From a virus: a stretch of DNA of 29,934 nt. The notes under the pieces are model-generated. The model was not told the DNA's origin and did no database searches. It was given only the letters and a program-made list of their open reading frames with translations. Positions 4,925 to 29,934 of the stretch are shown here, piece after piece; position 1 is the first letter of the stretch; every line of letters starts with the position of its first letter. Location: IMG/VR virus record IMGVR_UViG_3300035698_018616; one strand, 5' to 3'. The position numbers and the translations under genes are program-made.

Positions 4925-5080
4925 CTACCTCCTTTCTACTTCGCCTTCGGTTATAAAATATACTTTGTTCCTATCATCCACATATATAGGAATCGGTATA
5001 GGTATGATACAACATCCACTATATGACAAACTAATCATTATCAAGATGATACTCAATATTCTCTTTAGCTTTGAAATCAT
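4925..5080 (-). CDS. putative small lipoprotein (51 aa)
   Basis: Start at MISKLKR after GAGGAG; basic n-region, hydrophobic h-region and lipobox-like SYSG-C, then a Pro-rich IPIPIP segment. Confidence 0.55.
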   Translation of the reverse strand: MISKLKRILSIILIMISLSYSGCCIIPIPIPIYVDDRNKVYFITEGEVERR

Positions 5081-5825
5081 ATATCTCCTCTGCAAGTTTT
5101 GTATCCACACTAACTTCTTGTACCCCTATTGTAGCACTATTTTTATCAAATGTAAAGCTATTTTCTTTTCCAATCATAGTAGCAATTTCCAGAACACTTG
5201 TTAATCTACCACTTCCTATTGGAACAGGTTGATTGGTAACTCTATCAGAATTCAATGCTAACCAAATTGCTTCACATATATCGTTTACATGGATAAAATC
5301 TCTTTTCTGTTTACCATCACCATTAATCACTAACTTCTCTCCTTTAGCTTTAGCATTTATGAATAGTGGTATGACAGAAGGTTTTTCCTCCCAATACTTA
5401 CCACCGTATACATTAGCAAATCTTAGTATGTGGTTTTTACCTTTGTAGAGGTTCAATCTTTTAGCTTCGATTTCACCCATGAATTTCGTCATTCCATAGA
5501 GTGATTCATATGGTGTTGGTGCAGCGCCAGAGGAAGCAAACACTAATGGTGTATCATATTTTTCTGCTTGCTGCATTATATAGAAAGTTGATGTTACATT
5601 AGTAGTTACAGCATCTTCTGGATCATCTCTACATTCACCTACACCAGCTACAGCAGCAAGATGTACCACAGCATCGTATCTCCATACATCATTTATGTCT
5701 AATACCCAATTATCATCCTTCTTGTCTATTATAGTATAGCCACAATCCTTTTCTTTTAAGTAATCAACCAGATTGCTACCTATATAACCCTTTCCACCTG
5801 TAATGAGAATTTCTTTTTTATACAT
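5031..5825 (-). CDS. NAD-dependent epimerase/dehydratase (extended SDR)
   Basis: ILITGGKGYIGS, VHLAA, FASS, YGMTK, RFANVYG, DGKQKRDFIHVND. Confidence 0.92.
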   Translation of the reverse strand: MYKKEILITGGKGYIGSNLVDYLKEKDCGYTIIDKKDDNWVLDINDVWRYDAVVHLAAVAGVGECRDDPEDAVTTNVTSTFYIMQQAEKYDTPLVFASSGAAPTPYESLYGMTKFMGEIEAKRLNLYKGKNHILRFANVYGGKYWEEKPSVIPLFINAKAKGEKLVINGDGKQKRDFIHVNDICEAIWLALNSDRVTNQPVPIGSGRLTSVLEIATMIGKENSFTFDKNSATIGVQEVSVDTKLAEEIYDFKAKENIEYHLDND

Positions 5826-6068
5826 AACATATTCCTCCTTTTAATTTTTGTGTCCGGCTAGGGGGGGTAAAAACCATAAGAATTATCACTTACTTTCACA
5901 ATTCTTTAATCTTTACAATACTTTCCTTCATTCTCACCCTTTCTATTACTATCATTACTTTTCTTTGATTTTAGTACTTTTCAAAAGCGGCGGTATTCTC
6001 TCCTTCTAATGTTTTCAACGCTTGAGTACTGGTTCGACCCCTATAAAGCGTAACAATTTTTTCACACA

Positions 6069-6443
6069 CTACTTCCTCCAATTATAAATTATATCAACCT
6101 CATCTTCATCGGGTTCTTCATATGTAGTTCCTTTCCACAACTTACCACCCTCTACATAAATTAAAATAGATTCTTCAAATAAACTTCTTGCCTCATTCCT
6201 CCATTCTCTTTTAGGGGAAATTAGAGATATAATGACAATGAAACCTTGTTTCTCTATTAATGATGCAAGTTTAGCAATAGTTAGAATATTTTTATGTCTT
6301 CCATCATCTGTAAAGCCAAAATCAATCATCCCTCTAAATTCATCACCATCTAATATTACAGAAGGTACGGATAATTCTTTTTGTAATCTATAAGCTAAGG
6401 TAGTCTTACCAGCATTTGCTTTCCCTGTTATCCAAAATACCAT
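6069..6443 (-). CDS. cysC: adenylylsulfate (APS) kinase-like protein, unusually short
   Basis: VFWITGKANAGKTT P-loop, LDGDEFR, GFTDDGRHKNI, SLISP, YEEP. Confidence 0.75.
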   Translation of the reverse strand: MVFWITGKANAGKTTLAYRLQKELSVPSVILDGDEFRGMIDFGFTDDGRHKNILTIAKLASLIEKQGFIVIISLISPKREWRNEARSLFEESILIYVEGGKLWKGTTYEEPDEDEVDIIYNWRK

Positions 6444-6447: not shown

Positions 6448-6921
6448 TTAAAAACTCCCTCTATATAATTTTACTGGATTACCTACTACTCTTATACCAT
6501 CAGGCACATCCTTAGTAACAACACTACCAGCCCCTATGAATGATTCTGCTCCTATAGTACATGGACTTATAATGGTAGCATTTGCTCCTATCATAGCACC
6601 CTTCTTGACCAATATCTTTTCTAATTTACTGTTACCATAAGGATTAGGACTTCTGACATTAGTGAATACAGCACTCGGTCCTATAAAAACATAATCTTCT
6701 AATGTTACACCCTCAAAGAGATGAACATTATTTTGTATCCTACATCCCTTACCTATTATGACATTAGGGCCTATCACACAATTTTGACCTATGTTACATA
6801 AATCACCTATAATGGTTCCTTCCATTATGTGACAGAAATGCCAAATTTTAGTATCTTTACCAATTATGACCCCATCATCCACATAGGAGGATTCATGTAC
6901 AAATGCTATTTTCTGATCCAA
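6448..6921 (-). CDS. wbpD: WbpD/WlbB-like sugar N-acetyltransferase (left-handed beta-helix)
   Basis: FVHESSYVDDGVIIGKDTKIWHFCHI, IQNNV, FIGPSAVFTNV, hexapeptide repeats, VGNP. Confidence 0.88.
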   Translation of the reverse strand: MDQKIAFVHESSYVDDGVIIGKDTKIWHFCHIMEGTIIGDLCNIGQNCVIGPNVIIGKGCRIQNNVHLFEGVTLEDYVFIGPSAVFTNVRSPNPYGNSKLEKILVKKGAMIGANATIISPCTIGAESFIGAGSVVTKDVPDGIRVVGNPVKLYRGSF

Positions 6922-7458
6922 AATCTACTTCTCCATCCACTATTATGAAACACATCATGTTTTAATGGTGTAAAAACTTTCATGGTTTCTTCTATATCTT
7001 CATAATTGATTTCCAAACCCCAATCATGACACCCTATTATATCACCACTATTTAAATAAGGGGCATAGATGTTCACCTCTCCCTTCTTATTTCCATTATC
7101 ACAATATAGAAATTTCTTCCTTTTGTCCTTGCATAGTTTAATGATATCGGCATCAGGTTTACTCAAGATATCCATAACTTTAAACATAACTTTACCTTTC
7201 AATTGTTTCCTTACATTATGAAAATACCTATCATCTATATCATAAGCTCTTATTTCAGCATTAGGACAGGTATCATTTAAAAACAGAGTCAAACCTCCGT
7301 ATTGGGAGCCAAACTCTATAATTAGTTCCGGGTTAAGATCTGTTAAAATTTCAGCTATTGTATTCATTGCTTGCCATTCATGACGAAGCCTGATACCCTT
7401 ATACCCTTATACCCTTATAATCAAACCCACCCATTTCCACCGGTTTAAATTTTTTCAT
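6906..7458 (-). pseudogene. CmcI/cephalosporin-hydroxylase-like SAM methyltransferase, frameshifted near its 5' end (6906-7367 remains open)
   Basis: PELIIEFGSQYGGLTLFL and GDIIGCHD motifs; MKKFKPVEMGGFDYKGI from the ATG at 7458 joins RLRHEWQAMNTIAEIL in frame if the 8-bp repeat has a single copy. Confidence 0.7.
7393..7419. repeat. 8-bp tandem repeat (ATACCCTT) x3 plus ATA
   Basis: ataccctt ataccctt ataccctt ata read directly. Confidence 0.95.
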
Positions 7459-8326
7459 ATTTCTTTCTCATCCTCCATACCAATTCTATAGAAGGTTTAG
7501 CATCTTCTATACCATACCCTCCTCCATTTAGTATATCACGATACACCTCAGTATGTAAATCAGCAAAAACCTTATCCATACGAATAAGTTCCTCATTTAC
7601 AGTAATTTCTCTAAATGCTCCTTCATGTCCTTCTGGTAGTAATCCACTATCAGTTGACAATAAAAAGTTAGCCTTGGCTCTATCCAGATAAACTGTTCCT
7701 TCTACTGTATGCTTGTCCATAGTATTGATTGCAAAACTCAATTGCTTTCCAAATATCCATATAAGCATATCAAATAGATGTATACCTATGTTAGTAAGTA
7801 TACCACCAGACTTTTTATTATTACCCTTCCAGGACCTATCATACCATGGACCTCTTGGAGTAATATAAGTGATGTTTACTCTACACATACCAGAGGGTAG
7901 GTTTTCCTTGAGTTTCAATAATTCCGGATGATACCTTAGTTGAAGTATATTGTATATCTTTTTACCTGTTTCTTTTTCTATCACCTGTAATTGTTCTATA
8001 TTTTTAGAAAAAAGGACTAAAGGTTTCTCACATATAACATCGGCACCTACCCTCATTCCTAATCTACAATGGGCATCATGTAAGTAATTAGGAGAACATA
8101 TACTTAAATAGTCTATGCCCTTACCTTCCCTTTTCAGCAATTCTAAATGACGGTCAAACCTTTCTATTTCAGTAAAAAACTCACATTCAGGAAAATAAGA
8201 ATCAAGTATACCCACTGAATCATGTGTATCCACAGCAGCTACAAGATTACCACCTATTTCTTTAATTGCTTTCATATGTCTTGGTGCTACATAACCGGCG
8301 GCACCCATCAATGCAAAATCAGTCAT
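7445..8326 (-). CDS. wbpB: WbpB/WlbA-like UDP-GlcNAcA 3-dehydrogenase (Gfo/Idh/MocA)
   Basis: FALMGAAGYVAPRHMKAIKE, DSVGILDSYFP, SICSPNYLHDAH, CEKPL, SGGILTNIGIHLFD. Confidence 0.92.
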   Translation of the reverse strand: MTDFALMGAAGYVAPRHMKAIKEIGGNLVAAVDTHDSVGILDSYFPECEFFTEIERFDRHLELLKREGKGIDYLSICSPNYLHDAHCRLGMRVGADVICEKPLVLFSKNIEQLQVIEKETGKKIYNILQLRYHPELLKLKENLPSGMCRVNITYITPRGPWYDRSWKGNNKKSGGILTNIGIHLFDMLIWIFGKQLSFAINTMDKHTVEGTVYLDRAKANFLLSTDSGLLPEGHEGAFREITVNEELIRMDKVFADLHTEVYRDILNGGGYGIEDAKPSIELVWRMRKKYEKI

Positions 8327-9065
8327 TTTCTCTCCTTTCTAACAACCATGCTTCAGTTGCTATTAATTGTAATTTCATTCTAATATCTTCTACAGTTTTT
8401 GGTTCAAAATCCTTATAATAGTCCCTAATTTCCTTTTCCCATAACTCCTTATAGCTTACAAAAGCCGGTGGAGAACTAACCAAAAAGTCAGGAATAATTT
8501 TATCATATGCATCTACTAACATCTTTTTCTTAGGTGGACTATAAAAAGGATAAGTTTCTTCAAAATCCAATCTCACAAAAGGAATTTCTAAATCCATTTC
8601 TAAATGATTATGAATGGTTTTATACGTGGATGTTACATACATTAATTGGATGGCCCATGCTTCTATATATCCTCTATTAGAGTATCCACCAAAATGTTCA
8701 TCCGATCCTTCACCTATATAAACAGTTTCCCTTCCATCCTTTTTTGCTTGTTTTGCTAACCAATAGGGCCAAATATTATATCTTGGTTGATTAAAAAATT
8801 TCATTACTTTATAAAGTCCCTCTACAAAATTATCAATTTCAACCTCTTTATGAATTGTACCATAATATTCAGATACTTGCTTAGCTTTTTTATGTTCATC
8901 ACCTTTAATTCCAAACTTAGCAGTATATGTATAGATAGGTTCTTTACATTTTTCTGATAAATGATGTAATACTATTGTTGAATCTACACCACCACTTATA
9001 TATACAGCAGGCTTTGGTTTTACAATTACCTTTTCTCCTATAAGCTCCCCAATTCTTTCCTTCAT
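8319..9065 (-). CDS. asparagine-synthetase-like ATP pyrophosphatase/amidoligase (synthetase domain only)
   Basis: PP-loop YISGGVDST and GEGSDEHFGGY; no N-terminal Ntn glutaminase domain. Confidence 0.82.
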   Translation of the reverse strand: MKERIGELIGEKVIVKPKPAVYISGGVDSTIVLHHLSEKCKEPIYTYTAKFGIKGDEHKKAKQVSEYYGTIHKEVEIDNFVEGLYKVMKFFNQPRYNIWPYWLAKQAKKDGRETVYIGEGSDEHFGGYSNRGYIEAWAIQLMYVTSTYKTIHNHLEMDLEIPFVRLDFEETYPFYSPPKKKMLVDAYDKIIPDFLVSSPPAFVSYKELWEKEIRDYYKDFEPKTVEDIRMKLQLIATEAWLLERREND

Positions 9066-9949
9066 ATTTTTCTACCTGATATAAACCATCCTGAATGCTC
9101 CCATCCTTCGGGTTGTAATACCTTAATATCATCTTTTATGTTATTATTCCCAAACCATGTAAGAATTTCCTCGAGTGTATGAAAAGTTACGATACTTGGA
9201 TGATACCAATCAACATTTACTAATGTAGATCCATCCAATCCCATATTATCATTATAGTAACACTTTAAGAAATGATTATAAATAAATTCTTGCATACCAT
9301 ATGTACCTTTCTTTATACCCAGCAAAGGGATATCTTCTTCTATAACAATACCCTCTTTAATTTTTTGTAATGATTTACCTAACTTTGATATGGATTCTGA
9401 AAAATCTAGACATTCATCAAAAGAAAGAAGTGTAGTATTGTTTCTTATATGTTCATCAGCTAAACTTCTTATCAAAGGTTTTTTACAATATATATAAACA
9501 CCAATCAATCCATTAGGTTTCAAGTGATAACAAAGTTTAGAAAAATATTTCTCAGTGTTTCCTGTATGATGTAATACCCCATTAGAAAAAATTATATCAA
9601 AAAATTCCTTATCAAACGGTAAACTACCAAGGTCTGCTTTAAGAACTATAACATTATTCATATGTTTAGTTCTTTCTTTAGCTATTTCTACACTATCAGA
9701 GATGTCTACGGCATATCTTGTAACATTTTCATTAATATTAAACAACTCCTCTGCCCATCCTACCCCACATCCAGCATCTAAACAATTCATTCCATCCTTA
9801 AAAATATCATATAAATCCTTCTCTTCATGAATACCAAATAAAGGAAGAAACTGTTCTAACACATCAGATTTAGAAGTTCCATAATTTTTACCTTCCTCAG
9901 TTAACCATTTCTCTCCGAAACTCTTACTTGTTTGTTCCTTATTTTTCAT
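9062..9949 (-). CDS. class I SAM-dependent methyltransferase
   Basis: CLDAGCGVG, AVDIS, LPF..EFFDIIFSNGVLHHT, LKPNG. Confidence 0.92.
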   Translation of the reverse strand: MKNKEQTSKSFGEKWLTEEGKNYGTSKSDVLEQFLPLFGIHEEKDLYDIFKDGMNCLDAGCGVGWAEELFNINENVTRYAVDISDSVEIAKERTKHMNNVIVLKADLGSLPFDKEFFDIIFSNGVLHHTGNTEKYFSKLCYHLKPNGLIGVYIYCKKPLIRSLADEHIRNNTTLLSFDECLDFSESISKLGKSLQKIKEGIVIEEDIPLLGIKKGTYGMQEFIYNHFLKCYYNDNMGLDGSTLVNVDWYHPSIVTFHTLEEILTWFGNNNIKDDIKVLQPEGWEHSGWFISGRKI

Positions 9950-10965
9950 AATCCCCCTGATAGATATTTCAATGGAAGATTTTCCTTAATCAACTCATTG
10001 AAATCATTATTTACACTTCTAAAATATTCATCCAATTCTGGTCTATGTTCCTTTAGTATATCCCAGTCAATATATGAGATTTTATCTAAACATTCTTTAA
10101 TAAGGTATCTCCAAGAAAATATCATCCTAATCTTTTCAAATAAAGTCAAATTAGGATATTTATTAGACCTGATTTCTTCGTTATCTCTTAAAAAATACTT
10201 ATCATTCCAATACTTTTCTTTATTTAGACATGATAGGAGTTCATTACCAGCAGGTATACTCTTTGGACCAAAAAAGTTTATAGGCCTATGAGCAGACCAA
10301 GGAAACAATTTATATCTTATTAACGATAATTTGATACCTAAAGCTGAATATCCTCTATTAGGCACCTTTTCTATCAATAACTCCCCAATCAAATCTTTAT
10401 CAACACCAATCACTTTAAATATGTCATATAGGACCCTTTCCTTATCATCCTTAAAGTTTTCAAAAAAGAAAATGAAAACATCTTCCTTATTATAATATTT
10501 ATATGTGGATTTAAGTAAATTAGTATAGTTTAAGTTGGTATAGTTTAAATCCTTCAAAAATTTATTAACAGTTTGATAATGATGTTCATGAATACACTCT
10601 CTATAACAGGATAGTAACCAATCTGTTTGATACCTAAAGAAAACGATAATCTTGGCATTTGGAAACAATAAGTGTATTAAAGAAATGCTTACATCCCAAT
10701 CTTCATATGCTTTGAATAAATTTCCTGAAAACATTTCCCTGGATATAACTAAGGTTCCGTCTGAATGTAAGTTTTCAATTCTTTCCTGTTCCTTTGAAAA
10801 TTTCTTAAATACATAAGGCTTATCAACATCATCAGCCTTCAAATAATCTACTGCATATTGTACTAACTTATCGGGATTATACACTATATCCAACTTAGGA
10901 AATATAAAATTCTGGAAATATTTTGTTCCAGTCTTATGTAATCCTATATGTATAAATGTTTTCAT
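9946..10965 (-). CDS. PAPS-dependent sulfotransferase-like protein
   Basis: 5'-PSB-like FIHIGLHKTGTKYFQ; VISRE; 3'-PB-like KIIVFFRYQTDWLLSCY; FFENF. Confidence 0.8.
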   Translation of the reverse strand: MKTFIHIGLHKTGTKYFQNFIFPKLDIVYNPDKLVQYAVDYLKADDVDKPYVFKKFSKEQERIENLHSDGTLVISREMFSGNLFKAYEDWDVSISLIHLLFPNAKIIVFFRYQTDWLLSCYRECIHEHHYQTVNKFLKDLNYTNLNYTNLLKSTYKYYNKEDVFIFFFENFKDDKERVLYDIFKVIGVDKDLIGELLIEKVPNRGYSALGIKLSLIRYKLFPWSAHRPINFFGPKSIPAGNELLSCLNKEKYWNDKYFLRDNEEIRSNKYPNLTLFEKIRMIFSWRYLIKECLDKISYIDWDILKEHRPELDEYFRSVNNDFNELIKENLPLKYLSGGL

Positions 10966-12137
10966 TCATTAACCTTCATTGGAAAACAATATTTCATATA
11001 AAAACTCATTGGTACAAGATTAGTCTTTGCTAAGAAATGAAACAATGGTTGTAAAATCTCAAATCTTCTTTTATACGTTGGAAAGTTTTGCCAAGGTATC
11101 GGAGGTTGATTCATCATAGTATTGTACAATTCATCGGATAAATTAAGACGTTTTTTAAATGTTGATATAGTATTCTCATTTATCAAAGGTGGTGTGTTAT
11201 ACTCTTTCCATGCTTCTTCACGACTCATTTTACCATTTCTAACAAGAGCAGAAAGAGTGTTATTTCTTAAATCCATGTTACATTTTTGGGGTAGATAAAC
11301 ACTATGGCAAAATTCTGTTATCACATTTTCTAAATGATGCCCCCCATAATCTTTCCATCCAAACTCTTTACTCAGAAAAACTTTTGCATCTTCTTTATTG
11401 TAATCTATATACCAATATGGTCGTATTTTTCTAATCCGTGAAACACAGGTCCACCACATAAATCTACTAAACGTCATTAGTGGAAATGTTTTCATTGGAA
11501 GTCTACCGAATCTTTTGTGAATTACCCTTACATACTTTCCATCAAAATAATTGTTGTTGAGTGGAGTAACACCTTCTTCAATAAATGAATGACCATCAAG
11601 AATATATTTCACATTGTATTTATGGGCTGCTCGGTATTGTACTTCTGCTAAACCTATATCTGATGATGCTTCAATTTCCCCTACACCTGAAAGAAAGAAT
11701 GCTCTGAAAATATCATTAATCTCATCAAGATCTGGAGTATAAGTATATAAATCCACATCTAATGCTTTATTTATTTTGTTTAGATTACTATAAGCAATAT
11801 CCGATCCCCATGAATTATCATATGTAGCTGCTAAAGGTCGTAACCCCCATTGTTTAACAAGATATAATAAATAAGACGAATCTGTACCACCGCTTACACC
11901 TACAACACAATCATACTTTTTACCCTTTCCTGCAACTTTCATATCATTAATAATTTTATCAAGTTCCTCTTTCCCTTTACCTGTACCTGTTCCATATTGA
12001 TCTTTTAATTTCTCCAATTGCTTACAACAACTACATACTCCTTCCTCATCAAAAGTTATTCCAGGAACTCGTTCATCATATATACATTTAGTACATATCT
12101 TAACACCAGCTTTGTTTATATCTTGATTTAATAGCAT
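10962..12137 (-). CDS. N-acetyl sugar amidotransferase (WbpG/WbuX family)
   Basis: CTKCIYD...CSCC N-terminus, YDCVVGVSGGTDSSY, GLRPLA, FGWKDYGGHHLE, LVRNGKMSREEA. Confidence 0.88.
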   Translation of the reverse strand: MLLNQDINKAGVKICTKCIYDERVPGITFDEEGVCSCCKQLEKLKDQYGTGTGKGKEELDKIINDMKVAGKGKKYDCVVGVSGGTDSSYLLYLVKQWGLRPLAATYDNSWGSDIAYSNLNKINKALDVDLYTYTPDLDEINDIFRAFFLSGVGEIEASSDIGLAEVQYRAAHKYNVKYILDGHSFIEEGVTPLNNNYFDGKYVRVIHKRFGRLPMKTFPLMTFSRFMWWTCVSRIRKIRPYWYIDYNKEDAKVFLSKEFGWKDYGGHHLENVITEFCHSVYLPQKCNMDLRNNTLSALVRNGKMSREEAWKEYNTPPLINENTISTFKKRLNLSDELYNTMMNQPPIPWQNFPTYKRRFEILQPLFHFLAKTNLVPMSFYMKYCFPMKVNE

Positions 12138-12148: not shown

Positions 12149-13147
12149 CTAATGATCTGATTGTGCAACTTCTTTAACTGTGGAGTTTTTTCCCAAATTC
12201 ATTCTCCAATCTACTAATGTTCTAAGACCTTCTCTCAAAGAAGTCAGGTACTCAAAATTTAAATCTTTTTTAGCCAAAGAAGTATCACAAACTCTATTAG
12301 TAACAAATTCTTGTCCTACTTCTCTATATTCTATATCAAGATTAGAATTAGTTAGGTCTAACAACAATTCCACTACCTCTTTAATAGAAGTTTTTATTCC
12401 ACTACCTACGTTATAAAAACCAAATGGAATATCAGATTTTAAAGCATATATATTGGCTCTCGCTACATCCCTAACATCAATGAAATCAAATGATTGACAT
12501 CCATTTCCAAATACAATTGGACTTTTATCTGCAAGTATATTATCTATAGCTTTCATTATTACGGATGTATAGGCACCTTTGAAATCTTGTCTTGGTCCAT
12601 ATACATTCATATACCTTAGACCTACACCTTCAAGACCATATCTTCTATGAAATGCCTTAAACATATGTTCACCAGCTATTTTAGTTGCACCGTAAAAGGT
12701 CCAATTATTATAAGGGTGATCTTCTGTCATAGGTATCTCAACAGCATCCCCATAAACTGATGCCGAAGATGAATAAATTAGTCGTTCTATATTCTGATCA
12801 ACACAAGATTCTAACACATTAAAAGTTCCTCTGATATTAACATCAAAAGCCGACCTTGGATAATCCTGACATTGTAAAAGCCATAAAGCCGCTAAATGAA
12901 TTACTCCATCAGAATAATATATTGCTTTGTTTAATATGTCTGTTTGTATTATGTCCCCACCAATATCAAAAATAGAGCATCTATTTTTATCTTCAAGTGC
13001 TTCCTTTAAGTTTTCCTTAGTTCCTCTACAAAAATTATCATAGATTGTAACTTCCGATACATTCTCTTCTAATAGTAGATCAACCACATGAGAACCTATA
13101 AATCCAGCCCCACCAATTACTAATATTTTTTTATTCTTTAAATCCAA
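12149..13147 (-). CDS. NAD-dependent nucleotide-sugar epimerase/dehydratase
   Basis: ILVIGGAGFIGSH, YSSSASVYG, YGATK, RYMNVYGPRQD; probable TTG start at 13147 after GAGGAG. Confidence 0.92.
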   Translation of the reverse strand: MDLKNKKILVIGGAGFIGSHVVDLLLEENVSEVTIYDNFCRGTKENLKEALEDKNRCSIFDIGGDIIQTDILNKAIYYSDGVIHLAALWLLQCQDYPRSAFDVNIRGTFNVLESCVDQNIERLIYSSSASVYGDAVEIPMTEDHPYNNWTFYGATKIAGEHMFKAFHRRYGLEGVGLRYMNVYGPRQDFKGAYTSVIMKAIDNILADKSPIVFGNGCQSFDFIDVRDVARANIYALKSDIPFGFYNVGSGIKTSIKEVVELLLDLTNSNLDIEYREVGQEFVTNRVCDTSLAKKDLNFEYLTSLREGLRTLVDWRMNLGKNSTVKEVAQSDH

Positions 13148-13988
13148 TTTCTGACTCCTCAATTTCAATAAAACTATTATTCCCACATATGATAATATTA
13201 TTGTTTACTACTCTACCTGGAATTCCATAATATTTGATATCAGATAGCATTTTTGCTCTCCATATCATAACTTTCTCACCATTATGATAAAAATATGCTC
13301 CAGGATAAGGATGTGATTGTGCTCTTATGAAATTATAAACCTCTAAAGCTGATTTATTCCAATCTATAAGTCCATCATTAGGTGTTCTTTGTGTACAATA
13401 AGAAGCTTTACTATGGTCTTGTTCATATCCTGATATTTTATTATATAAAATACCTTTTATATTCTCTTTAATTTTAAGCATGGATTGTTCTTCTATAAAG
13501 GTAAGAATTTCTCCTATATAAATATCTGGAGATATATAAATTGTTCTTTGAGCATAGATAGGACCATCATCCATTCCTTCTGTAAATTGAAATAATGAAA
13601 ACCCAACATATTTTTCATTATTAATTATAGACCAAACTAATGGAGCACCCCCTCTATACTTCGGAAGTAAAGAATTATGAATACCTAATATTTTATAAGT
13701 ACTAACAATTTCAGCACTTATAAGCCAATACCATCCAACCACTAAACATAAATCGGGTTCTATATCTTTAATTATTTGTTCAGAAACTTGTCTATTCTCA
13801 CAAATCTCTATAGGTATATCATTCTCTTTACAATATGATTTTATATCCTTTAGTTTATTTCTACCATCGGATGAATCATCAATTGTTAGTACCTTAACAA
13901 GCTTTTCCGGTAAGGTTTCATGCAAAGCTTTGAGACATTTATAACCTATGTTTTTACTACCTAAAAATACGATTTTCTTCTTCATCAA
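13131..13988 (-). CDS. Fmt-like formyltransferase, probably nucleotide-sugar N-formyltransferase
   Basis: GIHNSLLPKYRGGAP, MDDGPI, DGLIDW, RAQSHPYPGA; lies between an aminotransferase and a dehydratase. Confidence 0.88.
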   Translation of the reverse strand: MMKKKIVFLGSKNIGYKCLKALHETLPEKLVKVLTIDDSSDGRNKLKDIKSYCKENDIPIEICENRQVSEQIIKDIEPDLCLVVGWYWLISAEIVSTYKILGIHNSLLPKYRGGAPLVWSIINNEKYVGFSLFQFTEGMDDGPIYAQRTIYISPDIYIGEILTFIEEQSMLKIKENIKGILYNKISGYEQDHSKASYCTQRTPNDGLIDWNKSALEVYNFIRAQSHPYPGAYFYHNGEKVMIWRAKMLSDIKYYGIPGRVVNNNIIICGNNSFIEIEESEIGFKE

Positions 13989-19454: not shown

Positions 19455-19615
19455 CACAACTCCCCTTTTTGTACTGGCATAGTTATACCAGTCGCTAAGA
19501 TTTCATGTACTTCTGTAGGCTCAACCCAGAAAGTGGTATTATCACTGAATGTTATACTGACCTTCAGGGGGGAAATGGAATATTCTTTTATAGTCTTCCC
19601 TTTTAGATCATTCAT
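19454..19615 (-). CDS. 53-aa small protein (not in ORF track)
   Basis: MNDLKGKTIKEYSISPLKVSITFSDNTTFWVEPTEVHEILATGITMPVQKGEL*; ATGA and TGATG overlaps; AAGGAG RBS. Confidence 0.65.
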   Translation of the reverse strand: MNDLKGKTIKEYSISPLKVSITFSDNTTFWVEPTEVHEILATGITMPVQKGEL

Positions 19616-21711: not shown

Positions 21712-22192
21712 TGTTAATTAATTCCTCGATTCTTTTCCTTGATTCAGGATGCATTTTCATTTTACTACCATTCTTGTCATACCATTTTTTAACATTCGGA
21801 GTTCCTTGTGCTCTACCCGCACCACACCAATCACAATACATTTCTTTTATATATATCTCCGGTATCTTGAATATCTTAGTGCCACCTCCATCTTCTGGAA
21901 GTATCCACCACTGCCAATGATGCTTATTTCTTTTCTGATGAAGTAACCAAGCGTAGTCGAATTTACTATCACCTGTATCGGTTGGTTTATAATAACCCGT
22001 TTCATCTCTACCTTTATTGATATCGCTTTTCATTGTACCATAGAAGTAGTTCGCATAAGGGAACAACTCACTTGGGAGAAATTTACTCCAATCATGTATG
22101 ATACCTCTCCATACTATACCTTGTTTACAGCAGGCAAGGAAAACAAACCACTTATGCCTCAATAAGTAAGATAAATATTTAAGATGCTTCAT
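21698..22192 (-). CDS. DUF5662-like HD-type phage protein
   Basis: RHKWFV, GIIHDWSKFLPSE, AWLLHQKRNKHHWQWW, EMYCDWCGAGR. Confidence 0.75.
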   Translation of the reverse strand: MKHLKYLSYLLRHKWFVFLACCKQGIVWRGIIHDWSKFLPSELFPYANYFYGTMKSDINKGRDETGYYKPTDTGDSKFDYAWLLHQKRNKHHWQWWILPEDGGGTKIFKIPEIYIKEMYCDWCGAGRAQGTPNVKKWYDKNGSKMKMHPESRKRIEELINNEES

Positions 22193-22346
22193 TGCCCTCT
22201 CTTACTAGCTTTATACCGATATAATCAGCAGGCGTTAGTCCATTTTTATGAAACACATGGCTAATTTTATATGATTGAAGCCATTGTTTTTCAAATTCCG
22301 TTTCTGGTAATATCATTAAGCTATTGTTTATAATTTCAGTTTTCAT
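22179..22346 (-). CDS. 55-aa small protein (not in ORF track)
   Basis: MKTEIINNSLMILPETEFEKQWLQSYKISHVFHKNGLTPADYIGIKLVREGNEAS*; ATGA overlap; GAGG RBS. Confidence 0.65.
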   Translation of the reverse strand: MKTEIINNSLMILPETEFEKQWLQSYKISHVFHKNGLTPADYIGIKLVREGNEAS

Positions 22347-22519
22347 AGCTCTTCCTCAAATAATTTATTAATATCTCCCCACTCATCTTTTGGAGACCAT
22401 ACTATAACTCTATGAAGATAATCCAATAATATTTTTACATTCTTCCTATCTAATCGAGGATTCCAAATATCTTGTAATATTCTTCTTCTTACATCTGTTA
22501 AAGGAACCGTATCCTCCAT
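22343..22519 (-). CDS. 58-aa mini-protein with shared C-terminal tag (not in ORF track)
   Basis: MEDTVPLTDVRRRILQDIWNPRLDRKNVKILLDYLHRVIVWSPKDEWGDINKLFEEEL*; starts immediately after the upstream TGA. Confidence 0.72.
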   Translation of the reverse strand: MEDTVPLTDVRRRILQDIWNPRLDRKNVKILLDYLHRVIVWSPKDEWGDINKLFEEEL

Positions 22520-23443
22520 TCATATACCCCACTTCCTCACTATCTCTTTACCTTCTGACATATTACTTATATGATTATACAATTCTTTTATCCTTATCGT
22601 GTCTGTATGGCTTTTTAAGAACTCATTATAACCATTTTTACTTATTATATCACATTCATCCTTATTGTCAAGTATCCATTTTCCCTTTTCTGCTATATTA
22701 CTACAATCATCTCTATATTTAACCATACAATCTTCTGATAGAAAGTTATGATCAAAACCAGGACTTAGTAATGTAGAACCGGACGCCATAATTTCAAACA
22801 TTTTGGCATGCGGACTTCTTATACCAGAGTTACCTAACATTGTGTCTGTGAGCATTGCTCTATGTAGCCTTAAAAATGGAGCATATTTGATACCCCCAAT
22901 CTTACCACCATTGTTTATAAGGTTTTCTTGTTCTAATAATTCTATTGCTTTACTTCTTTGGGTATAAGAAGAGGAAGAAGTAGTTCCGGTGAACCCTACT
23001 TTAGGTATTTTCCATTTGGTGGGATAGAATTCTTTCTCGTCAGCTGAATAGGGAACCCACACAGAAGGAATGCCTATATGTTTTTGAAAGGACTCAATAT
23101 CGTATACCCCTCTTTGTATAACGATGTCAAACTGATTATTCTTATACCAATAGAATTTATTCCTTTCTACAATTTTCCTATAATCCACTGCTATCATTAC
23201 CTTCAGACAAGGAATATCCTTCAAGTAACCATCCAATACATCGCTATGAGCTAAGAGTAACATAGCATCAGGTTTGTAATCAGAGTATAATTCTTCAGCT
23301 GAATATATGATACCATCTTTGCTATAGGCTTTGACACCATAATAATCACATAAAGTATTGAGTTTATTGACAAATCCTATATTGATACGATAATTTATTT
23401 TAGTATCTGGATCATGTTCTGGTAATATGGATACTATTCTCAT
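22520..23443 (-). CDS. GT-B glycosyltransferase (CgeB-like)
   Basis: WVPYSAD, KVGFTG, YTQR, HAKMFEIMASGSTLLS, ISKNGY...HT. Confidence 0.82.
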   Translation of the reverse strand: MRIVSILPEHDPDTKINYRINIGFVNKLNTLCDYYGVKAYSKDGIIYSAEELYSDYKPDAMLLLAHSDVLDGYLKDIPCLKVMIAVDYRKIVERNKFYWYKNNQFDIVIQRGVYDIESFQKHIGIPSVWVPYSADEKEFYPTKWKIPKVGFTGTTSSSSYTQRSKAIELLEQENLINNGGKIGGIKYAPFLRLHRAMLTDTMLGNSGIRSPHAKMFEIMASGSTLLSPGFDHNFLSEDCMVKYRDDCSNIAEKGKWILDNKDECDIISKNGYNEFLKSHTDTIRIKELYNHISNMSEGKEIVRKWGI

Positions 23444-24753: not shown

Positions 24754-24754
24754 T

Positions 24755-25726
24755 TTATATAGTCTCCTTTATATCCTTTTTGTATATAGGTAAAGTTTCT
24801 CCACCTTCAAAGTAATTCAATACACTCTGTACCCTTTCCTTTGTTGAATGATACTTCTGACAAAAATCAAATCCTTGTCTCCGTATCTTATCACCTTCTT
24901 TAGGTTCCTTTATAACATACTTATCATATTGCTCTTTTAAATGCTGAGCATTATCTCTCTTATAAGGAATATAATGCATTTCAGGTTCAAAAAATGTATC
25001 CATTGCTTCACATTGATCATGAAAATAAAGAGCACCTGCTCCACAATATTGAAAAGGTCTAACGTCCTGATAAAGAGGAATGTTTACACCCATCTGCATA
25101 CCAAGTACGGATTTAGCAGAAGATGAAAGTTCTGCTGTCTGAAAACGAGTATTACCTGTTTGTGGTGTTGGATAAACCTTTATATTGATAAGTCTTTTGA
25201 GTTGTTGTATAAACATTCTCCTTGGTCCATGATGAGTAGAAGAATCAAGATCACCTGTAAATGCCATATCACAATTATAACGTGGATCAGAATCAGCTAT
25301 ATCTTTTTGATAAAATGCCATATAAGGCCAATGTATAGTAGGTATCCTCCATATGTTAGAGAACTTTTGATAGTCACCGTGATTAACAAGCCCAAGGTCA
25401 ACCCACTGATCAATTGGTTTTGGATAACGGGGTATTTCTCGAGAGTCCCCCATGTGATACAATACCTTTGTTCCCATTCTTCTACGCATTTCACTAAGCA
25501 TTTGTAACACATCATGTCTCAATGGTCCAAAAATCATATGACAAAAAATAAAATCGGGCTTGAACCAATCTAATTCCAGTTTGATGTCATGCGTAGACCT
25601 ATTAACAAGTTGAACAGTTTTAGCCCAACATCCACAACGTATAGCTCCTTCGAGTGTGCCATATAGAAAGGCACTATAATAATTCTGTATATTACCAAGT
25701 ATAACAATTCTTTTCGGACGTAACAT
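24755..25726 (-). CDS. GT-B glycosyltransferase (CgeB-like)
   Basis: FKPDFIF, HMGD, DMAFTG, DVRPFQYCGAGALYF, FFEPEMHYIPY, IRRQG...HSTKERV. Confidence 0.82.
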   Translation of the reverse strand: MLRPKRIVILGNIQNYYSAFLYGTLEGAIRCGCWAKTVQLVNRSTHDIKLELDWFKPDFIFCHMIFGPLRHDVLQMLSEMRRRMGTKVLYHMGDSREIPRYPKPIDQWVDLGLVNHGDYQKFSNIWRIPTIHWPYMAFYQKDIADSDPRYNCDMAFTGDLDSSTHHGPRRMFIQQLKRLINIKVYPTPQTGNTRFQTAELSSSAKSVLGMQMGVNIPLYQDVRPFQYCGAGALYFHDQCEAMDTFFEPEMHYIPYKRDNAQHLKEQYDKYVIKEPKEGDKIRRQGFDFCQKYHSTKERVQSVLNYFEGGETLPIYKKDIKETI

Positions 25727-25743: not shown

Positions 25744-26496
25744 TTACCCTTTATACCTTCCATGCCTGATAGAACCATCCCCAGTTCCTAAATGGAAGTG
25801 ATACCGTCCATCATCACAATTTAAAGCTTCTTCTTTTGTGAATCCATGATCTTTCATAAGCATATCAATATGTCTTATGCAACCTAACCAATAGGTCCCT
25901 GTGTTAGCAATTACCCAATCAGCATCTCTCATGCCTCTACCACCTTTTAATACCTCATTCATTTTCCAATGCACATTATCAGCAAAACTTACCCATTTAG
26001 GCTTCAAATAGCTTAACCTAAATAAAGAAGGTGTAAATGCCCAATGAGGGTCAGTAACTAAAGGTACACCATCCCTTACTACTTGTTTTTTAACGAAGCC
26101 TGGTTTCTCATGCATTATGGTTCTCTTATGAAATCCTATTTGGTTGATATCGGGATTATTATCCATCAAGTTACATAATGATTCTATATCAATTTCTTTT
26201 ATAGGGTCTTGGTCATCCTCCCAATTTAATACATAAGGTGTTTTGCATTTACCTAATAACCATCCGAGTGAAGCTCCTTGCCCTATAGGTGGATTATGTC
26301 TTTCTATTACACTGTATACACCACTCTCCTTAGCATATCTAATACATTCATCTGACCTTCCACCATCTATTTGATCTTCATGAACCATCCAACGAAAATT
26401 CACCGTTGGTTTTAAGAACTTTACCATTGACTCTGTTGATATCCTTAGATAATCAGGTCTAGATGCTGAAGTTCTCATTATATCTACATCTCTCAT
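25744..26496 (-). CDS. GT-A (GT2-like) glycosyltransferase, paralogue of 19848-20666
   Basis: RTSASRPDYL, VHED, PYVLNWEDD, WAFTPSLFR. Confidence 0.8.
   Translation of the reverse strand: MRDVDIMRTSASRPDYLRISTESMVKFLKPTVNFRWMVHEDQIDGGRSDECIRYAKESGVYSVIERHNPPIGQGASLGWLLGKCKTPYVLNWEDDQDPIKEIDIESLCNLMDNNPDINQIGFHKRTIMHEKPGFVKKQVVRDGVPLVTDPHWAFTPSLFRLSYLKPKWVSFADNVHWKMNEVLKGGRGMRDADWVIANTGTYWLGCIRHIDMLMKDHGFTKEEALNCDDGRYHFHLGTGDGSIRHGRYKG
26030..26085. repeat. 56-bp perfect direct repeat, copy 2
   Basis: Identical to 20203-20258. Confidence 0.92.
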
Positions 26497-26514: not shown

Positions 26515-27579
26515 TTATTTCTTATATCTTATTGAATCTGGCATAGGAGGATTATTAGGATCGAAATTCTTAATTAATGGGTTAGTACAAGGTTTGGGAC
26601 CGGGTTCATAATCCATTTCTCCACCAAGACTTTTAGAAATAATTTTATGTATTACAGATTTTCTTTGGTCATATGGAAATCCATCATATTCTACTTTTAA
26701 GAAATTGAATAATTCTTCTGTAGTTAGACCAACACTAAAATATCCACCATACCAATCATTTATACTACCATCACTACCTCTTAAACTACCATATTTTGTG
26801 CAATTCTTAACAAATCCTAATGTTGCCGTAAAGTTTTCTCTTGTAACTCTAACAGTACTATAACCAAGGTGTAATGCATAACCATCCTTAAATACATTAT
26901 AATTACAGGTTTTAAATCCTTCTTTAAATAAACTATAACAATAAGGAGCTGATGCCCATCCAGCGTTACCGAATGTTGATATACCATGTTCTGTCCAACT
27001 TTTCATATCACATAAAATAAGACAAGAATTTGGAAATCCACCTGTAGTCTCAGCATTATATTTGTCCTTATAATATTCAAATCTACCTGTATGATTTATC
27101 ACTATACCATCTATTCTACCTGATGATTGTCCTACAGCAAGTATCTTTTCATCAAGGTCAAAACACGGTAACATATTAGGTATAAGGTTTACACCCTTTG
27201 GTAGTATATTGGTATCGGAATCCAGTATTAAAACATATCTGGTTTTAACATATTCAAGACCGGCACTTATAGCTATACCATGACCCAGACTTGTATTTTG
27301 TTCTGGATTTTTACCTCTTGATGTTTTATTATAATATCCTAATGATTTAGGTTTACCCCCTCTTACAACTGTTACATTTAAAGATTTGTCATTTTCGAGA
27401 CTATTTAAGTAATTTAATATATTTTCTTCATCAGAGCAATCATCTACTATTACTATATTAGCATACTGTTCCTTTGGTATATAAGCAATAGCTGATTCTA
27501 ATGCCAACCTAAAAATATTATAATTATTTCTCACTGTGTAAAGTAATGTTACATTTCCTGCCATTTTATTCTCCCCCAA
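26515..27579 (-). CDS. GT2 glycosyltransferase
   Basis: IVIVDDCS, GHGIAISAGL, YVLILDSDT, ALHLG. Confidence 0.85.
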   Translation of the reverse strand: MGENKMAGNVTLLYTVRNNYNIFRLALESAIAYIPKEQYANIVIVDDCSDEENILNYLNSLENDKSLNVTVVRGGKPKSLGYYNKTSRGKNPEQNTSLGHGIAISAGLEYVKTRYVLILDSDTNILPKGVNLIPNMLPCFDLDEKILAVGQSSGRIDGIVINHTGRFEYYKDKYNAETTGGFPNSCLILCDMKSWTEHGISTFGNAGWASAPYCYSLFKEGFKTCNYNVFKDGYALHLGYSTVRVTRENFTATLGFVKNCTKYGSLRGSDGSINDWYGGYFSVGLTTEELFNFLKVEYDGFPYDQRKSVIHKIISKSLGGEMDYEPGPKPCTNPLIKNFDPNNPPMPDSIRYKK

Positions 27580-28486
27580 TCATTTCCTTTATTTCTTCTT
27601 CTGTCATTTTTTGAGTATTGAGTGTACCATAAGGTTCGGTCAATCTGTTATTTTCCCTTTCTATATTAGATACTATAAAAAAATCCCAATCCAGTATAGT
27701 AGTAAAGGGTAGTTCTCTCTCAGATATTAGATCTTCTTCGAATTTTTCCACATGAGATCTAACACCTATAAGTTCCACATCATCGGATATACTTTTAGCT
27801 AACTCATATATATTAACAGTTTTCATGTCTCCTTTAACACCCGTCCATCCACCACCATGTAGATCACACATACCAATAGATTTATATATGAATTTTGCAG
27901 CATCCTCTAAAGAAAACATCATTCTATTCATCCTTTTATCAGTAACCCTCAAAGGTATACCACCCTCTTTCATTTTTTTCCATCTCGGTATTATAGAACT
28001 ACTACTATTGGCAACATTGGCAAATCTACAAGAGATGAATTTATTTCTATCAGTGTTTGCTTCCATAAAACATTTTTCTATTAAGAATTTTGTATTGCCA
28101 TAAACACTTTTAGACTTACATGCTTTGTCAGTGCTTATATTTATAGTTATAGGAACGTGAAACCATCTACTTGCTGAAATCACATTCAAGCTACCCAATA
28201 TGTTTATCTTACAGCCTTGTATAGGATGTTGTTCTATTACTTCTATATGCTTCATTGCAGCGGTATGAATTACTATATCTGGTTTCACTTTATCATAAAC
28301 ACTATATAAAGCACATTCATCTTCAATGGAGGCTGTGTAATTAGTAACTAAAGGAAATTCATCTTTTAATTCTGCTTGTAGTTTCTCCCCCCTACTGATA
28401 TTATAGAACTCATATAGGTCATAATATTTTTTAATGAAAGCCTTACCTATTGAACCAGAACCACCTGTTATCAACACTTTTTTCAT
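27566..28486 (-). CDS. UDP-GlcNAc 4,6-dehydratase-like protein (PseB/FlaA1/CapD family)
   Basis: VLITGGSGSIG, HTAAMKHI, ISTDKAC, YGNTK, CRFANVANSSSSIIP, VTDKRMNR. Confidence 0.9.
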   Translation of the reverse strand: MKKVLITGGSGSIGKAFIKKYYDLYEFYNISRGEKLQAELKDEFPLVTNYTASIEDECALYSVYDKVKPDIVIHTAAMKHIEVIEQHPIQGCKINILGSLNVISASRWFHVPITINISTDKACKSKSVYGNTKFLIEKCFMEANTDRNKFISCRFANVANSSSSIIPRWKKMKEGGIPLRVTDKRMNRMMFSLEDAAKFIYKSIGMCDLHGGGWTGVKGDMKTVNIYELAKSISDDVELIGVRSHVEKFEEDLISERELPFTTILDWDFFIVSNIERENNRLTEPYGTLNTQKMTEEEIKEMIGGE

Positions 28487-29934
28487 TTACCCAATACCTC
28501 CTTGAACATTTTTCTATAGTTTTCTGCTTGTATCTTCCATGTCCATTTTTCTTCTACTGTTTGTCTTGCTTTCCTTCCCATCTCCTGTACTACTTCTCTA
28601 TTGTTCTTCATCCAATTTAACCGTTCTATATATGATTTAACATTCCTTTCAACCATATACCCATTAATACCCTCATTTATGAATTCTGGTACATTACCTA
28701 TCTTATTACCCACAAAACATCTACCTGTTGATGTCGCTTCCAGTAATTGATTAGGAGTACCATCCATATCAGAAGCAATCATTATCATATCAACATCATG
28801 ATAGAAAGGTGGTATTTTCCCTGGTTTTATCACATTAGGGGAGTTAAATCTACATACTTGGGATTTCAATTTTACTTCCGCTTGTCTACAAGATTCTATA
28901 ACAAATTGTACATAACCCTTCCTCGTAGTATTTTTACCCACATAACCCACTGTAAATGGTTTAGTTATGTCTCTTTCTTTAAATGCAAAAAGGGTTTCAT
29001 CAACACCATTAGGTAAGTAATATACTTCACTATAATACTTTTCTAATTCCTTTTGTAGCAATACACTATTAGCATGATGAAATTTAGAACCATCCAACAT
29101 CTGTTTCCAATTACCCCTATAACTGGTATATGTATGTGATGTTACACCTATCAATTTTTGCTCAGCTGGTATATGAGAAAGGAAATGTGAAGCACCACAA
29201 TCAAATGTAAAATACAAGTCAAACTTTTCTTTCCTATCGAACTTATCTGTTGGGGATGATTGAAAATATCTTATAAATATATTGAAATCGTCACTTAACC
29301 ATTTCTTTATATTCTTAGCTTTAACATCCCATGCCCAGCCCCTTACATCTGAAAGTATTAGTATATCAGGTTTTCCATTTTTAGATCTTTCTCTTTTTAT
29401 TATTTTTGTTGGTTCTTCCTTCTGCTTTGGTTCTTCCTTCTTCTTCTTTTGCTTTTCCCTTCTTATTACTTCTAAATCTCTTAATGTGCCTTCATCTGGA
29501 CCATATTTTATTTTCCATTCTTCTGGAGACATATCCCTTTTCATATTATTCATATCCTTTTTAAGTAGTTCAGATTTAACTTTTAGAGATTCCCTTTTCT
29601 TTATAAGGTCCCTTTCCTCATCATCAATCTTTTCTAATTCTTTAGATATATCAATTATTCTCTTTTCAATTTCACCTTTATTTGAATATTCCGTTGATTT
29701 TCTATTATTTACTATATCCCACAACATTTTTCTATAGTTTTCTGCTTGTATCTTCCATGTCCAGCTTTCTAATACAGTTTTTCTTGCAATATTACCCATT
29801 TTTATCAGTTCATTTCTATGATCACGAAAGTATAGTATTTTTTCAGCATATTTATCAACATTCTTTTCAACGAGAAATCCATTAATACCATCTTGAATAA
29901 ACTCTGGCATATTACCAACTCTATTGGATATTAT
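28483..29934 (-). CDS. multi-domain (tandem) GT4 glycosyltransferase with charged/coiled-coil linker; 5' end outside the window
   Basis: Frame open to the window edge (IISNRVGNMPEF...); two copies of GN.PEFI..GINGF/Y.VE and WTWKIQAENYRKM; second domain has HANS, LPNGVD, VGYVG, DGTPNQLLEA. Confidence 0.88.
   Translation of the reverse strand: MISNRVGNMPEFIQDGINGFLVEKNVDKYAEKILYFRDHRNELIKMGNIARKTVLESWTWKIQAENYRKMLWDIVNNRKSTEYSNKGEIEKRIIDISKELEKIDDEERDLIKKRESLKVKSELLKKDMNNMKRDMSPEEWKIKYGPDEGTLRDLEVIRREKQKKKKEEPKQKEEPTKIIKRERSKNGKPDILILSDVRGWAWDVKAKNIKKWLSDDFNIFIRYFQSSPTDKFDRKEKFDLYFTFDCGASHFLSHIPAEQKLIGVTSHTYTSYRGNWKQMLDGSKFHHANSVLLQKELEKYYSEVYYLPNGVDETLFAFKERDITKPFTVGYVGKNTTRKGYVQFVIESCRQAEVKLKSQVCRFNSPNVIKPGKIPPFYHDVDMIMIASDMDGTPNQLLEATSTGRCFVGNKIGNVPEFINEGINGYMVERNVKSYIERLNWMKNNREVVQEMGRKARQTVEEKWTWKIQAENYRKMFKEVLGK
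28505..28545. repeat. 41-bp perfect direct repeat (other copy at 29723-29763)
   Basis: aacatttttctatagttttctgcttgtatcttccatgtcca is identical at both sites. Confidence 0.92.

Follow-up and report, generated by a model that had tools for sequence, protein, structure and literature searches.

The 29,934-nucleotide stretch of IMG/VR record IMGVR_UViG_3300035698_018616 analyzed here (the window, at its full length) corresponds to bases 7153-37086 of a 58,652-bp viral contig and is largely occupied by a sugar island, a block of genes for nucleotide-sugar synthesis, glycosyl transfer and glycan tailoring. The CheckV completeness of the parent contig was 24%, which implies a genome of roughly 240 kb; the sequence in hand (58.6 kb) is about 24% of that genome, and the contig-wide negative results reported below apply to that part. 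The island extends from 5031 to 30729 (window-equivalent coordinates) and comprises 34 open reading frames (ORFs), all on the minus strand, adding up to about 26 kb and some 28 soluble enzymes (Table 1). Junctions between the ORFs are mostly overlaps of 1-26 nt or spacings of <20 nt, and gaps of >60 nt occur only at 5825-6069, 7367-7445, and 16203-16267. An earlier model reading of the letters alone (hereafter the sequence-only reading) had described one co-oriented, tightly coupled cluster with about eight glycosyltransferase (GT) genes from three folds, a set of specific chemistry labels, and enzymes devoid of transmembrane (TM) segments; all of these points were borne out, as detailed below. 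At one base (29150), the window and the stored parent record disagree.

Combining Pfam with AlphaFold2 (AF2) models and Foldseek, we counted eight GT genes with nine GT domains, distributed over three folds: three GT-A genes, four GT-B genes, and one GT-D-like gene whose assignment is weak. Pfam alone recovered six of these genes with seven domains. Two GT-A genes (19848-20684 and 25744-26496) are paralogues that have no family of their own in Pfam and belong to a family of 285 representatives; PF00535 matched 10 of the 51 members of the family alignment, which was too diverse to be used for a locus scan. The AF2 model of this family (pLDDT 89) matched SpsA, GnT-I, and ppGalNAc-T with a Foldseek probability of 1.0, and also matched GT2 proteins of cyanophages and giant viruses. 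The R..HED..EDD motif of the paralogues is likewise present in GnT-I-type enzymes. The double-GT4 gene extends 795 nt beyond the end of the window.

The chemistry labels given to the UDP-sulfoquinovose synthase (SqdB), the WbuX-family amidotransferase, the sulfotransferase with its adenosine 5'-phosphosulfate (APS) kinase, and the three methyltransferases of the island hold by profile scores or motifs, although the full-length SqdB match stays below the equivalog cut-off. SqdB shares 56-60% identity with proteins named UDP-sulfoquinovose synthase, and an identical SqdB is encoded on another contig of 193.7 kb. No SqdB homologue was found in GenBank phages and no WbuX homologue in 50,697 GenBank phage records, while the PseB-like gene had only eight matching records, with no cyanophage among them. 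The sulfotransferase is weak by score, and its GLHKTGTKY motif, similar to a 5'-phosphosulfate-binding loop, and R..D..S motif, similar to a 3'-phosphate-binding site, align with the corresponding motifs of PDB 3rnl that bind 3'-phosphoadenosine-5'-phosphosulfate (PAPS). The short APS kinase, which presumably supplies PAPS, has a 120-aa homologue with 49% identity in a distantly related locus (L088). The ATP-grasp ligase is encoded by two ORFs overlapping by 8 nt; because a relative (L087) has the same split, it does not result from a sequencing error.

A core trio of contiguous genes, namely the GT-A (25744), the GT-B (24755), and the kinase-like+methyltransferase fusion (23440), is found again, at 41-47% identity, on two phage contigs that are otherwise unrelated (G001 and G002). 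The N-terminal half of the 437-aa fusion also exists as a stand-alone protein. When a stand-alone homologue with 74% identity was modeled with AF2 (pLDDT 88), the best 50 VIA rows were all kinase-like folds, with Z scores of only 5-6.5, and the top Foldseek match was CotH kinase, at an E value of 0.19. A conserved Lys and a D..K..N...D motif in this domain would fit a kinase. In G001, the sugar cluster (13 kb) abuts a 929-aa protein with ~700 residues of serine repeats, and two more poly-Ser proteins (737 and 860 aa) are encoded right behind the tape-measure homologue, i.e., in tail-tip positions. These serine tracts resemble the acceptors of serine-rich-repeat glycoproteins. The 737-aa protein has no homologue in GenBank phages and only two relatives in the databases, and none of the poly-Ser proteins has a sequence match in the PDB. 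The families Sipho_tail, Phage_capsid, and Prophage_tail had no match in G000, G001, or G002.

Membrane steps were sought with a Kyte-Doolittle 19-mer hydropathy scan and with six-frame family searches, whose controls were positive in 10-14 of 14 genomes. The island enzymes showed only single marginal hydropathy peaks (1.66-1.94), located within Rossmann, beta-helix, and similar soluble folds, and no credible ORF of the 58.6-kb contig had more than two hydrophobic segments. Bac_transf (PF02397) and Glycos_transf_4 (PF00953), whose controls matched 10 and 13 of the 14 genomes, respectively, had no match in the contig, nor had Polysacc_synt (PF01943) and ABC2_membrane (PF01061). The sequence-only reading had found no priming or export genes within the window, and the remainder of the contig beyond 29934 is likewise free of them. 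Genes for priming, flipping, polymerizing, or ligating were not found on G001 and G002 either. The last gene (3' end) of the island's strand encodes a 123-aa protein with two TM helices, whose membership of the island is uncertain.

Table 1. Features of the sugar island, with two associated loci. Positions refer to the window unless another record is named; aa, amino acids; SDR, short-chain dehydrogenase/reductase; SAM, S-adenosylmethionine.
Feature	Position	Strand	Evidence
Protein of 123 aa, two hydrophobic helices, charged C-terminus, holin-like build	4391..4762	-	Maximum Kyte-Doolittle 2.62, 2 segments; no Pfam family
SDR sugar epimerase/reductase, short, 264 aa	5031..5825	-	PF01370 E 2e-35; partial RmlD, GalE, Fcl model matches
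APS-kinase form, short, 124 aa, P-loop kept	6069..6443	-	PF01583 E 5e-22, profile positions 4-108 of 152
Left-handed beta-helix N-acetyltransferase (NeuD/PglD/WbpD-like)	6448..6921	-	Hexapep E 4e-28; TIGR03570 90.6 bits
CmcI/rhamnosyl O-methyltransferase-like methyltransferase	6906..7367	-	PF04989 26.9 bits (cut-off 23.2)
GFO/IDH/MocA sugar oxidoreductase (WbpB-like, by analogy)	7445..8326	-	PF01408, PF02894; UDP-GlcNAc 3-dehydrogenase model 1e-8
Asparagine-synthase-type PP-loop amidoligase domain, without glutaminase domain	8319..9065	-	PF00733 E 1e-20, profile positions 21-141 of 354
Class I SAM methyltransferase	9062..9949	-	Methyltransf_31, _11, _25
PAPS-type sulfotransferase, divergent	9946..10965	-	PF00685 22.3 bits (cut-off 22)
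WbuX-family N-acetyl-sugar amidotransferase (acetamidino formation)	10962..12137	-	TIGR03573 227 bits (cut-off 203.2), positions 1-342 of 344
GalE/TviC-like UDP-sugar 4-epimerase	12149..13186	-	PF01370 E 1e-52; galE 159 bits; TviC 129 bits
Sugar N-formyltransferase, ArnA/Fmt-like, both domains	13131..13988	-	PF00551, PF02911; NF005414 173 bits
DegT/PseC/LegC-type sugar aminotransferase	13993..15078	-	PF01041 E 4e-103; PseC model 265 bits
GT-B GT, CgeB-like type (Glyco_trans_1_2)	15023..16051	-	PF13524 29.5 bits (cut-off 25)
Second hexapeptide acyltransferase	16267..16662	-	Hexapep E 2e-7; NeuD_NnaD 52.8 bits
PIG-L/LmbE-type de-N-acetylase	16662..17297	-	PF02585 E 2e-14
GT-D-like GT (weak call)	17281..18120	-	PF22882 27.5 bits (cut-off 27); NCBIfam 25 (cut-off 75)
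UDP-sulfoquinovose synthase (SqdB/SQD1/Agl3 type)	18124..19263	-	NF041015 511.4 bits, positions 1-379 of 384; below 575-bit equivalog cut-off
Three conserved mini-ORFs (64, 53, 83 aa) directly upstream of sqdB	19263..19863	-	No Pfam family
GT-A GT, phage-rich family, conserved R17..HED..EDD	19848..20684	-	Family alignment, AF2/Foldseek
ATP-grasp ligase as two ORFs, 99-aa PylC-like N-domain and 243 aa	20659..21682	-	PF21360, PF02655
DUF5662 protein	21698..22192	-	PF18907 E 9e-40
Two mini-ORFs (55, 58 aa), second with shared C-terminal tag	22179..22519	-	Sequence
GT-B GT (Glyco_trans_1_2)	22520..23443	-	PF13524 27 bits (cut-off 25)
Fusion of protein-kinase-like-fold domain (residues 1-~250) and SAM methyltransferase, 437 aa	23440..24753	-	AF2 fold, Pfam methyltransferase domain
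GT-B GT (Glyco_trans_1_2), conserved core-module member	24755..25726	-	PF13524 E 9e-12; 44-47% identity in G001, G002
GT-A GT, paralogue of 19848-20684	25744..26496	-	Sequence comparison
GT2 (GT-A) GT	26515..27579	-	PF00535 38 bits
PseB/FnlA-like UDP-GlcNAc 4,6-dehydratase	27566..28486	-	PF02719 E 1e-50; PseB model 156 bits
Two-GT4 (GT-B) protein, 748 aa; C-terminal 483 aa in window	28483..29934, on to 30729	-	Pfam
Poly-Ser proteins of G001 (860, 737, 929 aa)	L101 14934-19733; L102 12864-15653		Sequence composition

Several small proteins accompany the enzymes. The three mini-ORFs on the upstream side of sqdB are kept in all four relatives, with identical order and tags in L083, L084, and L087, and two of the three end in SDW[DN][DE][IV]DK[LM]FKE[EK]L. 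The 83-aa product is Thr/Gly-rich, whereas the 64-aa product begins with APGVYIREVDLS, a start that we take to resemble sheath N-termini as a motif; Pfam gives nothing for the mini-ORFs, and the idea of a sheath arm stays a motif likeness. A C-terminal tag of the form …W.[DE][IV].K[LM]F.E[EK]L is shared by otherwise unrelated mini-proteins at 19263-19457, 19612-19863, and 22343-22519 (-), and tag-bearing mini-proteins were also observed outside the island at 3049-3372 and 3339-3542 (+) and at L001 2758-3054 and 3491-3775, the upstream form being …DLFVL. Since its occurrence is not confined to the glycan island, the tag is probably a docking element for a general hub; a likeness to clamp-binding tails is conjectural. 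The DUF5662 protein has no PDB sequence match, and in an unrelated viral locus (L041, 9366-9800) a homologue with 35% identity immediately precedes sqdB on its upstream side. This recurrent pairing suggests a role linked to sulfoquinovose synthesis.

The surroundings of the island are those of a large phage, in line with the sequence-only reading, which had taken the contig to be viral and not cellular. The upstream side of the contig carries Mre11/Rad50 homologues, a Seg-like endonuclease, and a RecA/UvsX protein. Beyond 30729, genes on the same strand encode a DruA-like protein, an N6-adenine DNA methylase, a protein without assigned family, a GIY-YIG endonuclease, and a primase, followed further out by HNH endonucleases, a class II ribonucleotide reductase (RNR), a divergent thymidylate-synthase-like protein, an RNase H with the T4 C-terminal domain, and a SAM-lyase-like protein. 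Families of ribosomal proteins or of other cellular housekeeping functions did not appear among the contig ORFs scanned, and Terminase_6N had no match in the 58.6-kb contig. The GC content of the island (0.28-0.37) and its negative GC skew are the same as those of the phage flanks, which indicates that it is at home in the phage genome and not a fresh capture. On this ground, and because relatives have the island in the same phage backbone, a recently captured host locus was rejected as an explanation. Scans for promoters and terminators returned fewer sites than shuffled sequences and are therefore uninformative on timing.

Some of these neighbors deserve mention in their own right. The DruA-like gene (PF14236, E 4e-22; phrog_19197) and the CcrM/N6_N4-type adenine DNA methylase gene (L002 2286-4243, equivalent to window 30733-32690, -) immediately precede the island and belong to its operon-like run, and a Druantia-family domain is an odd find in a phage. 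The 443-aa protein upstream of the methylase matched only unnamed viral clusters (Atlas). The thymidylate-synthase-like protein (L002 16867-17658, -; 263 aa) is very divergent, scoring about 20 bits against thymidylate synthases of the PDB; it is of uracil type, as the RS.D…PxN signature is kept, and could act as a dUMP hydroxymethylase or modify bases in another way. Four homing-endonuclease-like genes, two GIY-YIG/NUMOD3 and two HNH (L001 5844-6728; L002 5704-6519, 10578-11378, and 15865-16863), are dispersed among those of UvsX, primase, and RNR, and an N-formylglutamate amidohydrolase-like gene adjoins the class II RNR gene.

Megablast of the whole window against GenBank phages gave no match, nor did single-protein IMG/VR scans with UvsX and SqdB, and none of 79 IMG/VR loci with sqdB shares the island. 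The close relatives are contigs from one salt-lake metagenome, in which genes neighboring sqdB are exchanged or no more than 47-58% identical. The GT-D-like gene is 92-95% identical in L084 and L085 and absent from L083. The latter has an sqdB with 92% identity and retains the mini-ORFs and GT-A upstream of it, but on the downstream side, where the GT-D-like gene is lacking, it has a 2-epimerase-like gene, and identity of the enzymes in common drops to 36-58%. In the distant relative L088 (4107-6311), the SqdB domain lies inside a 734-aa fusion, followed by a double-GT4 homologue, and the 120-aa APS-kinase form is nearby. The island stretch was present in 24 salt-lake sequencing runs (2017-2019), and no RNA run was listed among the runs holding it. 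Contigs of four runs matched the stretch without differences, yet all four broke into unlike sequence at 16178 and 18730 (the latter inside sqdB). These shared positions suggest recombination break points between co-occurring strains. One low-depth contig (run X9) differs at 6034-6447, where 30 other letters stand in place of the APS-kinase gene. By these sequence comparisons, the island is a mosaic that changes fast, as surface-glycan loci typically do.

We propose, with somewhat less than even confidence, that the island is a phage-owned, strain-variable, and lipid-carrier-free cytoplasmic glycan assembly line, which most likely decorates the phage's own particle proteins; we infer a cytoplasmic acceptor. 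SqdB would convert UDP-glucose and sulfite to UDP-sulfoquinovose, while the PseB-like dehydratase or the GFO oxidoreductase would act with the single DegT aminotransferase to yield an amino-deoxy-N-acetylhexosamine that would then be N-formylated, N-acetylated, or made acetamidino by WbuX. The PIG-L enzyme would permit re-acylation and the GalE/TviC-like enzyme would carry out epimerization. From such donors, the eight GTs would put together a branched hetero-oligosaccharide, and the chain would be O-sulfated by the sulfotransferase, for which the short APS kinase would supply PAPS, methylated by the three methyltransferases, and amidated by the ATP-grasp ligase and the AsnB-like domain. The kinase-like+methyltransferase fusion may cap it, by analogy with WbdD of E. 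coli O9a. The acceptors would be Ser/Thr-rich or surface-exposed parts of virion proteins, resulting in an anionic glycan coat. A fuller version of this proposal is unlikely as a whole: tail, sheath, and other surface proteins would be coated, in the cytoplasm and without a lipid carrier, with a strain-specific mucin-like anionic glycan (sulfonate, sulfate esters, acetamidino/N-formyl groups, and methyl or possibly methyl-phosphate caps), tagged mini-proteins (one of them mimicking the sheath N-terminal arm) would serve as adaptors between enzymes and particle, and the swapping of cassettes would create phage 'serotypes'.

Decoration of the virion fits best because of the lipid-free build, the GT families of protein-modifying type, the association seen in G001, and the precedents in mycobacteriophages and giant viruses. 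Several observations weigh against it. The island sits in the replication/nucleotide-metabolism arm of the genome, directly after the DNA methylase, and no structural genes or Ser/Thr-rich proteins were found in the 58.6 kb (~24% of the genome). Ser/Thr-rich tracts were also missing from G002 and from the 79 viral sqdB loci, and the poly-Ser association comes from one contig of another phage. The proven mycobacteriophage glycosylation cassettes have two to four genes beside the structural genes and use C-terminal Ser/Thr tails as acceptors, and neither feature was found in the available 24% of this genome. Enzyme chemistry was assigned by family membership, with several scores under the equivalog cut-offs, and the best named matches of the double GT4 are exopolysaccharide (EPS) enzymes. 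Soluble GTs are, furthermore, equally typical of lipid-linked O-antigen and EPS pathways. Since the GTs of those pathways are also soluble or peripheral, the phage could use the priming enzyme, flippase, and ligase of its host.

In a somewhat unlikely alternative, which needs no more than host carriers that take the product, the phage GTs extend a lipid-linked primer made by the phosphoglycosyl transferase of the host and the host flippase and ligase or exporter display the glycan on lipopolysaccharide (LPS), capsule, S-layer, or wall, where it would block superinfection and keep progeny from sticking to infected cells and debris. Comparable islands of 15-24 genes in large cyanophages, likewise polymorphic between relatives, are currently interpreted as serving such remodeling of the host envelope (PMC1079782, PMC7824862, PMC12801897). 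WbuX, the trio of GFO, DegT, and left-handed beta-helix enzymes, the TviC-like epimerase, and the EPS-type GT4 are classic O-antigen/EPS enzymes, and the location of the island amid genes of early or replication type is consistent with host takeover. On the other hand, the missing priming, flipping, polymerizing, and ligating genes on the 58.6 kb and on the two other contigs with the core module speak against it, the machinery of the host would need to tolerate a foreign and heavily charged unit, and no lytic phage is known to have been shown to do this. The poly-Ser tail proteins next to the corresponding module of G001 also point elsewhere.

Phage DNA is the weakest of the candidate acceptors, and it is improbable that some or all of the sugars, e.g., sulfoquinovose, are placed on hydroxymethylated phage bases as protection from restriction and CRISPR. 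The co-orientation of the island with the DruA-like and N6-adenine DNA methylase genes that it directly follows could be read in this way, as could the putative dUMP hydroxymethylase with its kept RS.D...PxN signature. There are phage GT-A/GT-B enzymes, with kinship to those of LPS and teichoic pathways, that glycosylate DNA (10.1101/2023.12.21.572611). However, the thymidylate-synthase-like gene lies outside the island, 15 kb upstream, TET/JBP was not found by six-frame search, and Pfam returned neither a C5-cytosine methylase nor a DNA-type GT family (only GT2, GT1-type, and GT-D-like). Known DNA glycans have one to three sugars, as opposed to the eight GT genes, about 20 tailoring enzymes, and added negative charge found here. 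Least probable of all is a product that is not a polymer, such as a sulfoglycolipid similar to sulfoquinovosyl diacylglycerol (made by SqdB and a GT4, which would save phosphate for the synthesis of DNA), a glycosylated small molecule, or a secreted metabolite. Cellular SqdB is normally paired with a GT4 sulfoquinovosyl transferase, the 734-aa sqdB-containing gene of L088 is directly followed by the double-GT4 homologue, and one report describes a viral sqdB that stands alone as an auxiliary gene (PMC7785012). Nevertheless, eight GTs from three folds plus amino-sugar pathways far exceed the needs of a lipid head group, and the island has neither acyl or lipid enzymes nor an aglycone pathway.

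If virions indeed carry the glycan, no phage-made particle glycan known would be more elaborate, and none before it would have had sulfonated and sulfated sugars. It would then bear on how phages in brine avoid aggregation, non-productive adsorption, grazing, or host recognition, and the GT-A/GT-B/kinase-methyltransferase core together with the poly-Ser tail proteins of G001 would provide a tractable model for the 20-year-old question of the purpose of large 'LPS' islands. Irrespective of its target, the island offers, in compact form, soluble enzymes for rare nucleotide sugars.

Among known systems, bacterial Wzx/Wzy- or ABC-dependent O-antigen and capsule loci also hold nucleotide-sugar synthesis and several GTs in one co-oriented block, but the phage island has neither the initiating phosphoglycosyl transferase nor the multi-TM exporter in the 58.6 kb. 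WbdD of E. coli O9a, a kinase-methyltransferase chain terminator, joins a protein-kinase-like domain to a SAM methyltransferase in one polypeptide of a glycan pathway, as the island fusion would do; in the latter the domain order is reversed, and WbdD works with an ABC exporter, none of which is encoded on the phage contig. The serine-rich repeat adhesins Fap1/GspB (with the GT-D enzyme dGT1) and the Bacillus spore coat and crust (sps, cgeB) are glycosylated in the cytoplasm by soluble GT-A, GT-B, and GT-D enzymes without a lipid carrier. The island parallels them in its CgeB-like PF13524 GTs, in SpsA being a top structural match of the GT-A paralogues, and, as regards the acceptor, in the poly-Ser proteins beside the homologous module of G001. 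Those systems are cellular, however, and the resemblance is one of family and logic only, the GT-D call being marginal here.

Virus-made glycans have been experimentally shown on giant-virus virions (PMC9614988, PMC10117803). Like the island, the clusters behind Mimivirus/Megavirinae fibrils and chlorovirus capsids encode soluble pathways to rare bacterial-type amino sugars by way of 4,6-dehydratases, DegT-type aminotransferases, N-acyltransferases, and methyltransferases; they also have multi-domain GTs and are clade-specific, and their assembly takes place in the cytoplasm, onto virion proteins. They differ in serving eukaryotic viruses with experimentally shown glycans, and sulfoquinovose is not reported for giant viruses in the literature searched. 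In mycobacteriophages, O-glycosylation of the virion has been proven (Che8, Corndog, and Myrna; Freeman et al. 2023, cited in PMC12619734), and it likewise relies on phage-encoded soluble GTs, which act in the cytoplasm on capsid and tail proteins.

Close counterparts are also the islands of large T4-like cyanophages (P-SSM2, S-SCSM1, and S-SCSM2R), which share with the present one a large lytic phage with T4-type replication genes, polymorphism between relatives, and many co-located SDR epimerases and dehydratases, aminotransferases, methyltransferases, and GTs of several families. The sequence-only reading had called the pathway far more elaborate than typical phage GT cassettes, which stands in comparison with mycobacteriophages but not with P-SSM2, whose sugar island has 24 genes (PMC1079782), or S-SCSM2R, with 22 genes and 13 GTs (PMC12801897). 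Since P-SSM2, large sugar islands have been a known feature of big lytic phages, and this kind of island is not new. In contrast to those of the cyanophages, the present island shows no detectable sequence kinship with them (by megablast, and with no GenBank phage homologue of SqdB and WbuX), comes from a salt lake, and forms a single 26-kb operon-like block with sulfonate, sulfate ester, acetamidino, and N-formyl chemistry. What is new is this richness and chemistry, including the kinase-methyltransferase, within 26 kb and 34 ORFs, along with the absence of a membrane step encoded nearby, the strain-level mosaicism, and the link of the core module to poly-Ser tail proteins in another phage.

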